Assembly: GCA_049903315.1 (NCBI GenBank)
Contig: JBNGBT010000011.1
Span: 30,914-94,913 of the forward strand
DNA: 64,000 bases
Reading direction: 5' to 3'
DNA from: Candidatus Cloacimonadota bacterium
Lineage (GTDB): Bacteria; Cloacimonadota; Cloacimonadia; JGIOTU-2
Below, piece by piece: positions 25,352-29,827 of this stretch. The stretch's first letter is position 1. Each line of letters starts with the position of its first letter. The notes under the pieces are model-generated. The model was not told the origin of the DNA. It did not search any database and saw nothing but the letters and a program-made list of their open reading frames with translations. A program made the translations under genes and the position numbers.

Positions 25352-26212
25352 ATGACTTATAAAAAAAAGAGATTTGGTCCTGAGGAAATTTCCAAACTCA
25401 TAATCAATTTATTACAAAATAGCAAATTTATAATTACTTTATTGTACTATTTATTAATAATATCAATATCAATTATTCTTTTAATTTTTTTCATTTTTTT
25501 AGACACAAATATTGATATTAGTAAAGCAATGATAATTCCATTTATCACAGCAATTACTGCAATAATTATCTTAATTTATACAAAGGAAACTTATGAATTA
25601 AGAGTAATCGAAAGTAAAAAATATGAAAGAGAATTAAGACCAATTCTTGAGTATAAAGTCGAGCAAAGAAATGATGAAAATCCTTTTGAACTGACCCTTC
25701 TTATTCATAATAAATCGAATGAGCTAATATCATGTCTTGTAAAACTTGAATATTTTATTTTGTTAGACAATAATTCTTTTACTATTCATAAGAAAAATCC
25801 TTGGAAGAGATTTCAGGGTAATAGAATTTGGAATATTCAATATAAACAGACGATTGAGTCAAAATTTGAAATTACTAAAGCATTCAAATGGTATAATTCT
25901 TGGCTTGATTCCTATTATCTTTACAAATCTTCAGAAGACTATTCTTTATACATGAAATCAATCATGGAATTATCCAAATTTTATAAACCTGATTACAATA
26001 TTGAGGAAATGAGATCTTTCAAATTACTATTTAAATTTCATCTTGTTAGTTTCACTAATTCTACAAATGTTATTCCTTATATACCAATTACATATATTAT
26101 AAATATGCTTCTTGTTAATCACAATTTGGAATATTGTTTTACTAGTGAAACTCCTGCATATAAATATGATAAAATTCCTAAGTGGGCTGAAAAAATAATA
26201 AATAATTTGTGA
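25352..26212 (+). CDS. AT-rich hypothetical membrane protein
   Basis: 286-aa ORF, two N-terminal hydrophobic segments, AAGGA RBS. Confidence 0.65.
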   Translation: MTYKKKRFGPEEISKLIINLLQNSKFIITLLYYLLIISISIILLIFFIFLDTNIDISKAMIIPFITAITAIIILIYTKETYELRVIESKKYERELRPILEYKVEQRNDENPFELTLLIHNKSNELISCLVKLEYFILLDNNSFTIHKKNPWKRFQGNRIWNIQYKQTIESKFEITKAFKWYNSWLDSYYLYKSSEDYSLYMKSIMELSKFYKPDYNIEEMRSFKLLFKFHLVSFTNSTNVIPYIPITYIINMLLVNHNLEYCFTSETPAYKYDKIPKWAEKIINNL

Positions 26213-29143: not shown

Positions 29144-29152
29144 TATAAATTT

Positions 29153-29235
29153 TCTCACCATCCTTAAAAAAAAATGGCTCCACAGGAGGGATTTGATCCG
29201 CCAGCTGGCGGATAACAGACACCTGCTCTACCGCT
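29153..29235 (-). pseudogene. Truncated tRNA-Asn copy plus trailer, with 16-bp palindrome replacement
   Basis: Matches 29481-29563 except that 17 nt are replaced by TCCGCCAGCTGGCGGA (29197-29212); also one substitution and one extra A in the A-run. Lacks the tRNA 5' end. Confidence 0.9.
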
Positions 29236-29479
29236 ACGAAAAAATTTCTTCCCGAATGAATTTTCTTCCCTGATAAGATTTCAATTCCCTTTCTCTTTTC
29301 ATTGCTTCTGATTTTGTTTCAAATTCTTCATGATAGACTAAATCCCAAGGAATATATTTCGCAGTCCAGCCCTGGATGCCTTGATTGTGAAAATGTAATC
29401 TTCTTTCTAAGTTGTTGGTATAACCAATATAGATCTTATCATATACGGGAGAATATAAAACATAAGTATAATATTTCAA
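29234..29479 (-). CDS. Small stand-alone GIY-YIG nuclease
   Basis: 81 aa: YTYVLYS...IYIGYTNNLERRL..HN..W...EAMKRERELK. Confidence 0.92.
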   Translation of the reverse strand: MKYYTYVLYSPVYDKIYIGYTNNLERRLHFHNQGIQGWTAKYIPWDLVYHEEFETKSEAMKRERELKSYQGRKFIREEIFS

Positions 29480-29501
29480 ATCTCACCATCCTTAAAAAAA
29501 A

Positions 29502-29576
29502 TGGCTCCACAGGAGGGATTTGAACCCCCGACAAAGTGGTTAACAGCCACCTGCTCTACCGCTGAGCTACTGTGGA
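29502..29576 (-). tRNA. tRNA-Asn(GTT), intact, CCA encoded
   Basis: Cloverleaf TCCACAG/CTGTGGA, anticodon arm GGTGG-CTGTTAA-CCACT, TTCAAAT T-loop. Confidence 0.96.
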
Positions 29577-29696
29577 ACGTAGTGGAGACTTACATCCAGT
29601 GACCGCTCCTTAGTGTCAAGAAAATCAAGACCTATTTATATATAAAAACTAATTTAACCTTTAATAAAATTTCTTATCCCTTACAAACCTAACACA

Positions 29697-29773
29697 CTCC
29701 ACAGGAGGGATTTGAACCCCGTCCGCCAGCTGGCGGATAACAGCCACCTGCTCTATCGCTGAGCTACTGTGGA
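29697..29773 (-). pseudogene. Defective tRNA-Asn copy with the same 16-bp palindrome
   Basis: Palindrome at 29722-29737, D-loop GG>GA, no CCA. Upstream 47 bp also duplicated (6 mismatches versus 29577-29623). Confidence 0.9.
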
Positions 29774-29827
29774 ACGTAGTGGAGACTTACATCTGATGAC
29801 TGCTCATTCGTGTCAAGAAATATGACA

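Follow-up and report, generated by a model that had tools for sequence, protein, structure and literature searches.

A dispersed 16-bp hairpin replaces short TCC/GGA-like sites and fills a slot in tRNA genes beside single-domain GIY-YIG nuclease genes

The spread of very small palindromic repeats in bacteria is, to our knowledge, unexplained, and we know of no mobiliser for most of them. The small dispersed repeats (SDR) of Nostoc were reportedly described as insertions of 21–27 nt by Elhai et al. in 2008, the paper in which a rule similar to the one given below would most likely be found. SDR are dispersed in many contexts, lie inside other repeats and are nested; we know of no mobiliser for them. 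Precise insertion into HIP1 is described for SDR5 in the accessible part of PMC4390886. The unit analysed here resembles SDR in being a tiny, gene-less hairpin that is found inside other repeats, in nested form and at precise sites, but differs in its size (15–16 nt), in its occurrence in other phyla and in replacing a site that resembles its own ends.

In the Ssn system, SRMs of 20–50 nt carry an oriented tag, and the accessible part of the account shows cleavage without sequence replacement and makes no mention of tRNA (PMC11893778). As in Ssn with its NTS/SRM sites, a small single-domain GIY-YIG gene is flanked here by hairpins that are also dispersed genome-wide; unlike in Ssn, the cassette appears to target a tRNA, the hairpin is shorter than SRMs and sequence is replaced. 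The degenerate SRM motif, as given in the accessible part of PMC11893778, gave 0 matches in the 500-nt flanks, and it is insensitive in this genome (termed G000; other G numbers denote compared genomes) because it also missed the repeat-flanked C11 gene. Cutting and recombination by SegB of phages T4 and T6 lead to tandem tRNA–nuclease repeats whose tRNAs stay functional (PMC13096335, accessible part). The present cassette shares with SegB the position of a GIY-YIG gene beside its putative tRNA target (55 of 79 loci with an intact tRNA on the same strand) and the tandem amplification, whereas SegB is a phage enzyme and the accessible account of it contains no hairpin scar. REPs tagged with GTAG/CGTC measure 20–40 bp (PMC3733652, accessible part). 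Like these and like Rickettsia palindromic elements, the palindromes studied here are dispersed and in part lie in frame in housekeeping genes; unlike REPs, they are 16 bp long and untagged (GTAG or CGTC within 6 nt at only 7 of 194 sites) and add only about two codons by replacement. Unlike with MITEs or insertion sequences, there was no target-site duplication, since flanking direct repeats of only 0–2 nt were found at 188 of 194 sites and target bases were lost. On the features compared, the unit does not qualify as a REP, a MITE or an SRM. By analogy, it would behave as a mobile palindrome of very small size, and the cassette as a homing element directed at tRNA genes. In a literature search outside which most subscription papers lay, no published description of the replacement rule, the motif or tRNA-linked single-domain GIY-YIG cassettes was found.

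The window, a 64,000-nt stretch of G000 that was analysed as a whole, contains the palindrome TCCGCCAGCTGGCGGA twice (Table 1), as originally reported; a search tolerating up to two mismatches returned these 2 matches, against 0 in 100 shuffles. On the minus strand, clpX is followed by a promoter, a scarred tRNA-Asn (copy C), a spacer, a second promoter, an intact tRNA-Asn, an 81-aa GIY-YIG gene and a scarred partial tRNA (copy A). Copy C occupies the clpX-adjacent place that is held by the intact tRNA in relatives without this copy. Both palindromes start at tRNA position 38, right after GTT-A37, and replace tRNA sequence without target duplication, as had been proposed. The original prediction further described two different deletions of 17 nt and about 11 nt. 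The first figure was accurate for copy A, and the second resolved into 10 nt plus one G of a G-run in copy C. As slots of 10 and 17 nt were both found, the two deletions are two slots with a common left end and similar end motifs.

Table 1. Positions of the features around the two hairpin copies (numbering of the window)
Feature	Position	Strand	Remarks
Hairpin copy 1	29197..29212		18 bp with adjoining A/T; fills the 17-nt ACC...GGT slot, tRNA positions 38–54
Hairpin copy 2	29722..29737		Fills the 10-nt slot, tRNA positions 38–47; one G of the next run also gone
Copy A, downstream pseudo-tRNA-Asn	29175..29238	-	Short D-arm/anticodon lead, hairpin, intact T-loop-to-CCA end
T-run and ribosome-binding region	29151..29174	-	Duplicate of the stretch after the intact tRNA (29480–29501)
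Single-domain GIY-YIG gene, 81 aa	29234..29479	-	Stop codon within the D-arm remnant of copy A
Intact tRNA-Asn(GTT)	29502..29576	-	Sole Asn tRNA call of the assembly without a scar
Native slot	29524..29540	-	10-nt site 29531–29540; 17-nt ACC...GGT site 29524–29540
Promoter region of intact tRNA, duplicated	29577..29624	-	TTGACA box at 29614
Copy C, upstream pseudo-tRNA-Asn	29696..29774	-	No encoded CCA; predicted misfold
Promoter region of copy C	29775..29822	-	TTGACA box at 29811; directly after clpX

An assembly artefact was ruled out: the contigs of three runs with near-identical DNA show zero letter differences in either palindrome, and those of X12, the one of these runs that is not marked as a possible source, span both. 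A loop variant at 29729 occurs in a related salt-marsh contig. Pairing of the new CCGCC with GGTGG of the anticodon stem, as suggested in the original prediction, is possible on paper, but the hairpin's own fold wins in copy C (predicted pairing probability 0.95 versus 0.0009 for the anticodon stem). The best predicted fold of copy C reaches -32.2 kcal/mol with the hairpin versus -28.5 kcal/mol when formation of the anticodon stem is imposed. That copy C still works as a tRNA, only with a changed anticodon stem, was rejected on this predicted misfolding, and because the hairpin fold is favoured, the D-loop changed and CCA not encoded, copy C is unlikely to function as a tRNA. Of the sequence words, 0.04–0.09 occur in the six RNA runs. 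Scarred copies are nevertheless called as genes by tRNA scanners, a warning for annotation. The pattern of identical palindromes between diverged flanks holds here and in G008; in G003 and G017, it does not, the copies having decayed. Elsewhere in the window, a 286-aa ORF without a Pfam match lies upstream of an M1 peptidase gene (25352–26212).

The palindrome is one copy of a dispersed 16-bp hairpin family. TCCGCC-N4-GGCGGA has 15 copies in G000, including 6 exact 16-mers, and is the most frequent GC-rich hairpin with a 6-bp arm and a 4-nt loop in this genome. Among 30 relatives scanned, 17 of the 18 genomes that belong to the same taxonomic family hold 2–77 copies, G019 reaches 112 copies in 1.7 Mb, and 11 more distant relatives have zero; a reversed control pattern gave 0–1 copies per genome. 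The strict 4-nt-loop pattern missed dialects with 3-nt loops, and a degenerate pattern applied to 101 genomes was too noisy. The palindrome measures 16 bp here and 14–17 bp in other genomes. Most copies of TCCGCC-N4-GGCGGA lie far from tRNA and GIY-YIG genes. The exact 16-mer was found at at least 122 metagenome loci, with a tRNA within 600 nt at 8 and a GIY-YIG gene of this group within 600 nt at 1 of the matches listed, and 0 of 56 loci in viral DNA had a tRNA or GIY-YIG gene within 400–600 nt; some of these metagenome and viral matches are likely chance hits in GC-rich genes. A search for a master gene flanked by hairpins, which covered 20 stretches with single or clustered copies and the surroundings of 35 G000 hairpins, yielded none, and inspection of the 20 stretches by eye revealed no common neighbour gene. 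The reading that the original prediction had named as its refutation, namely a palindrome confined to this place, derived from one ancestral mutation and without a link to GIY-YIG genes elsewhere, fails on the dispersed copies, on the reuse of the slot across tRNAs and phyla and on the GIY-YIG link at other loci.

Host sequences of the hairpin include intergenic repeats with a fixed slot in which several unrelated hairpins are found, a hint at swapping of a more general kind. In-frame hairpins were identified at 13 of 49 examined sites in G019 (of 112), located, as in Rickettsia palindromic elements, within protein-coding genes, i.e. in open frames homologous to G000 genes; these frames gain 1 to 5 residues at 26–66% identity to their homologues. 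The genes concerned are presumably ruvC (twice) and the cytidylate kinase gene cmk (L422, L425, L427). Where housekeeping proteins or structured RNAs of uncultured bacteria contain short insertions, the net gain of 6 nt described below can account for them.

Several copies lie in structured RNAs or in one another. In G000 and G009, a hairpin copy forms the variable arm of a tRNA-Ser(CGA) that is normal in other respects (G000:C9:2333-2424; L360), a tolerated replacement in what is likely a working tRNA. Two helices of RNase P RNA bear hairpins (G000:C55:212922 and 213032; L212, L374, L392, L483), and one of the slots differs between genomes, being of the TCCCGA type in G000 and of the TCCGCC type in both G003 and G019. 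Hairpins nested in the loop of the 16-mer give forms of 39–40 nt (G000:C3:38179 and C70:79472), and repeats similar to the NTS/SRM motif of Ssn nucleases harbour the hairpin within their own loop (L312, L324, L362, L379).

Alignment with palindrome-free orthologous sites yielded a replacement rule without target duplication: the 16-mer stands where empty orthologues have a 10-bp TCC-N4-GGA-like site. The net change is +6 nt, so that the reading frame is kept inside genes. For sites outside tRNA genes, 146 hairpin sites from seven genomes of the same genus were compared with G000. Of these, 30 could be aligned on both flanks, corresponding to 21 distinct places in G000, where the replaced length was 10 nt at 8, 9 nt at 1, 8 nt at 2 and 13 nt at 2 places, leaving out seven 16-nt places and one 40-nt place that were mostly already filled, decayed or nested. 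In the eight empty 10-mers, 34 of 48 end positions match TCC/GGA (null expectation 11.1; 0 of 200,000 draws), with one 10-mer not fitting the motif. Seven of the eight lie inside long ORFs, so frame selection contributes to the 10-nt length; pseudo-tRNAs, which are free of frame selection, give the same length. At the nuclease loci, 51 of 62 resolved junctions (36 loci) replace 10 nt, and at 30 of the 36 loci the slot, of the form ACC...GGT, lies at position 38 of tRNA-Met or -Asn, in two or more phyla. In tRNA-Arg, a 9-nt ACC-N3-GGT site is lost; lengths of 9 and 17 nt occur beside the usual 10 nt. The resemblance between target and palindrome, noted loosely in the original prediction, could be specified on these alignments, by which the replaced stretch is bounded by the hairpin's own ends, TCC/ACC on the left and GGA/GGT on the right.

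The 81-aa protein contains PF01541 as its sole domain (E 1.8e-17), with Y6, Y17, G19, R27, H31 and E63, which we take to be the catalytic residues, all present. With dN/dS values of 0.04–0.07 where computable, the gene is intact and under purifying selection. An NCBIfam search with the protein gave no match; its nearest solved structures are UPF0213 proteins, and its closest named relatives (71–92%) come mostly from Candidatus Cloacimonadota records. That the nuclease gene was recently passed between members of the genus is not supported, its pS being 0.65–0.84 versus 0.47–0.75 for clpX on 45 sites. This locus recurs, with both Asn tRNA copies and a nuclease of 89% identity, in a record with a Woesearchaeota title (L031), likely a misbinned contig.

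Scars in tRNA genes are coupled to nuclease loci. In G000, partial copies accompany 3 of 46 tRNA genes, all three with a GIY-YIG gene and a hairpin, and the other 43 have neither. A hairpin was found at 72 of the 79 nuclease loci in GTDB. Of 76 partial 3' tRNA copies in 50 GTDB loci, 68 carry a hairpin and 8 something else, including one shifted and one decayed hairpin, and none (0/76) has kept the native slot. Immunity of the scarred copies to cutting, as envisaged in the original prediction, fits these data. More than one intact tRNA beside the nuclease was found at 4 of the 50 loci. Outer tRNA halves are 0.98 (5 upstream loci) and 0.93 (24 downstream loci) identical to the local tRNA, as against 0.59 and 0.48 for inner halves, which fits a resident gene that was split again and again. 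Tandem arrays are present at L040, L045 and L093; L093 and L040 come from cultured carriers, Niastella or Sphingobacterium strains.

As the explanation that we prefer, the hairpin would be a repair patch, drawn from the host's own pool at DNA cuts that the adjacent GIY-YIG nuclease is predicted to make here; for the whole chain, the chances of being right or wrong appear about equal to us. We infer four steps, in which the nuclease cuts, a donor is copied under guidance of the ends, the scar resists further cutting and recombination takes place with an offset. The nuclease is predicted to nick or break the native tRNA slot and to drive duplication of the tRNA gene. The slot ends, 2–3 nt in length, would pair with the ends of a distant hairpin copy, and repair synthesis would copy the 16-mer into the slot. 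A patch in a single essential tRNA gene would presumably be lethal, so that scars would survive only alongside a second copy. Scarred halves would escape cutting and act as recombination arms, with every cut of the intact copy repaired with an offset. Such repair would leave one intact tRNA and the nuclease gene between two scars, fresh outer tRNA halves and tandem arrays. The leading candidate for the writer at sites outside tRNA genes would be small GIY-YIG nucleases acting in trans.

As a tentative extension, which we hold to be rather less probable than wrong, an undescribed short-patch rewriting system may exist in many phyla, overwriting TCC...GGA-like mini-sites with a genome-specific 15–16-bp hairpin that tRNA-targeting GIY-YIG cassettes would use as a mark of self-immunity. 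If so, mini-sites would be recognised by end homology of 2–3 nt, and the hairpin would come close to the lower size limit of known mobile DNA, with a design that preserves reading frames and the capacity to reshape proteins, tRNA arms and RNase P RNA. Because the states before and after replacement are defined (10-bp target, 16-bp product, host-specific donor pool and 81-aa candidate nuclease beside its likely target), the question of how such small palindromes spread can be tested with oligonucleotides and one small protein.

The link between hairpin and nuclease was also followed at the genome level, as had been proposed. Among 100 Bacteroidia genomes (G123 left out), at least 8 excess hairpins were found in 15 of 49 with a nuclease homologue versus 3 of 51 without (p 0.0015), the latter count still scoring G053 as nuclease-negative; this genome was dropped as an example of a nuclease-free, hairpin-rich genome when a profile search found the gene. 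The nuclease is not singled out by this association, since at least 8 excess hairpins also occurred in 18 of 77 genomes with versus 0 of 23 without a Y1 HUH protein (PF01797; p 0.011) and in 15 of 56 with versus 3 of 44 without DUF559 (p 0.017), all p-values overstating the significance because related genomes are not independent. G001, G005 and G011 have 57–77 hairpin copies and only distant nuclease homologues by this query. The original prediction thus stands as to a site-specific, templated scar or mini-element, which is dispersed, recurs at one slot across several tRNAs and phyla and is GIY-YIG-linked elsewhere; mobilisation by the neighbouring nuclease is too narrow, given the many copies far from GIY-YIG genes, these three genomes without a close homologue and a scar variant that tracks the host genome rather than the nuclease tree.

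The Y1 HUH association points to an alternative in which a strand-transfer enzyme of the RAYT kind swaps single-stranded hairpins at the stem base independently of breaks, with the GIY-YIG nuclease only making spare tRNA copies that tolerate the swap. Precise replacement without duplication would suit such cut-and-join chemistry, there is a one-sided flank bias in that, at 166 of 194 sites, TCC follows an A on one strand or both, and different hairpins occupy the fixed slots of repeats and of RNase P RNA. All 18 hairpin-rich Bacteroidia genomes encode a Y1 protein, but so do 77 of the 100 genomes, most of them without the hairpin; moreover, the native 10-mer does not fold according to fold prediction, the GTAG/CGTC tag is absent at 187 of 194 sites, and swapping alone leaves the complete loss of native slots from partial copies unexplained. 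We regard this alternative as unlikely, though worth keeping in mind.

The source of the scar bears on a second alternative. Hairpin arms co-vary between genomes with pairing kept. In four of five genomes picked for their differing variants, the tRNA scar carries the variant that predominates genome-wide (scar variant versus other: 37 vs 0 copies in G031, 8 vs 3 in G032, 8 vs 0–1 in G034 and 29 vs 0 in G035), and G033 breaks the match (3 vs 9). Five genomes with 3-nt-loop scars contain 9–108 dispersed copies, which have 3-nt loops in nearly all rows listed. On the nuclease tree, obtained by a quick method from 76 nucleases and 81 columns, with mostly open forks and 18 rows unlabelled, 12 minority variants need 12 changes, the maximum. 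As the scar variant follows the host genome and not the nuclease tree, the scar hairpin was likely copied from the host's own pool. Further clades of the nuclease, located at tRNA-Asp, -Pro, -Val, -Ala and -Arg, carry a second type, TCCCG...CGGGA, in place of the T-arm or anticodon-arm hairpin; the TCC/GGA base is common to both types.

If the hairpin instead served its nuclease as recognition site, in the manner of NTS and SsnA, hairpin–tRNA–giy–hairpin would be the unit that moves, and dispersed copies would be its by-products. The layout resembles NTS-ssnA-NTS as given in the accessible part of PMC11893778, the hairpins of G000 and G008 are identical although clpX differs at 0.57 of synonymous sites, distinct nuclease clades pair with distinct hairpin types in G000, and the genome-level co-occurrence, to which G053 with its nuclease gene can be added, points the same way. 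Opposed to this are the host dialects, two pseudo-tRNAs that each bear two hairpin types in two slots (L041, L042), the lack of an SRM motif near the gene and the richness in hairpins of G001, G005 and G011, in which no close nuclease homologue was found. On balance, such a recognition site is improbable.

Very improbable is local template switching, in which a weak inverted repeat would be perfected and selection for a stable hairpin would produce convergence without a donor. The targets are themselves weak inverted repeats, and loop length and sequence vary between lineages, but the inner GCC/GGC arms and the loop are absent from the targets, the same 16-mer occurs in unrelated hosts and phyla, and the presence of one arm variant throughout whole genomes largely refutes this account. 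That one ancestral mutation was carried along by local duplication is hardly credible and refuted as a general account: an arrangement common to the genus and a nuclease gene as diverged as clpX imply that some scars were inherited, but in relatives (G007, G008, G003, G017, G019) each of the two junction types is found at the upstream as well as the downstream position, with differing loops, which excludes a single ancestral event, and in other phyla tRNAs for Met, Asn and Arg have this slot filled too.

Further loci extend the range of arrangements. At tRNA-Asp and tRNA-Pro of G000, the same tRNA-GIY-YIG-pseudo-tRNA layout carries TCCCGA...TCGGGA scars (G000:C44:128958-129440, C55:56290-56687). 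A second, different tRNA-Ser(GGA/CGA) pair is located on the 533-bp contig G000:C56, which is possibly foreign to the bin. An apparent four-helix-bundle gene and an apparent integrase gene each have a small GIY-YIG gene inserted in them, with short inverted ends (L343, L348), and, as judged by eye, a small GIY-YIG ORF is present in an apparent 23S rRNA gene in two relatives of the class (L349, L350). At L526 (G007:C147:11900-16685), the clpX-adjacent tRNA is scarred and the intact copy follows 4.4 kb further on, with a truncated nuclease gene, two small ORFs and an M1 peptidase gene in between; the duplicated unit can therefore enclose cargo.
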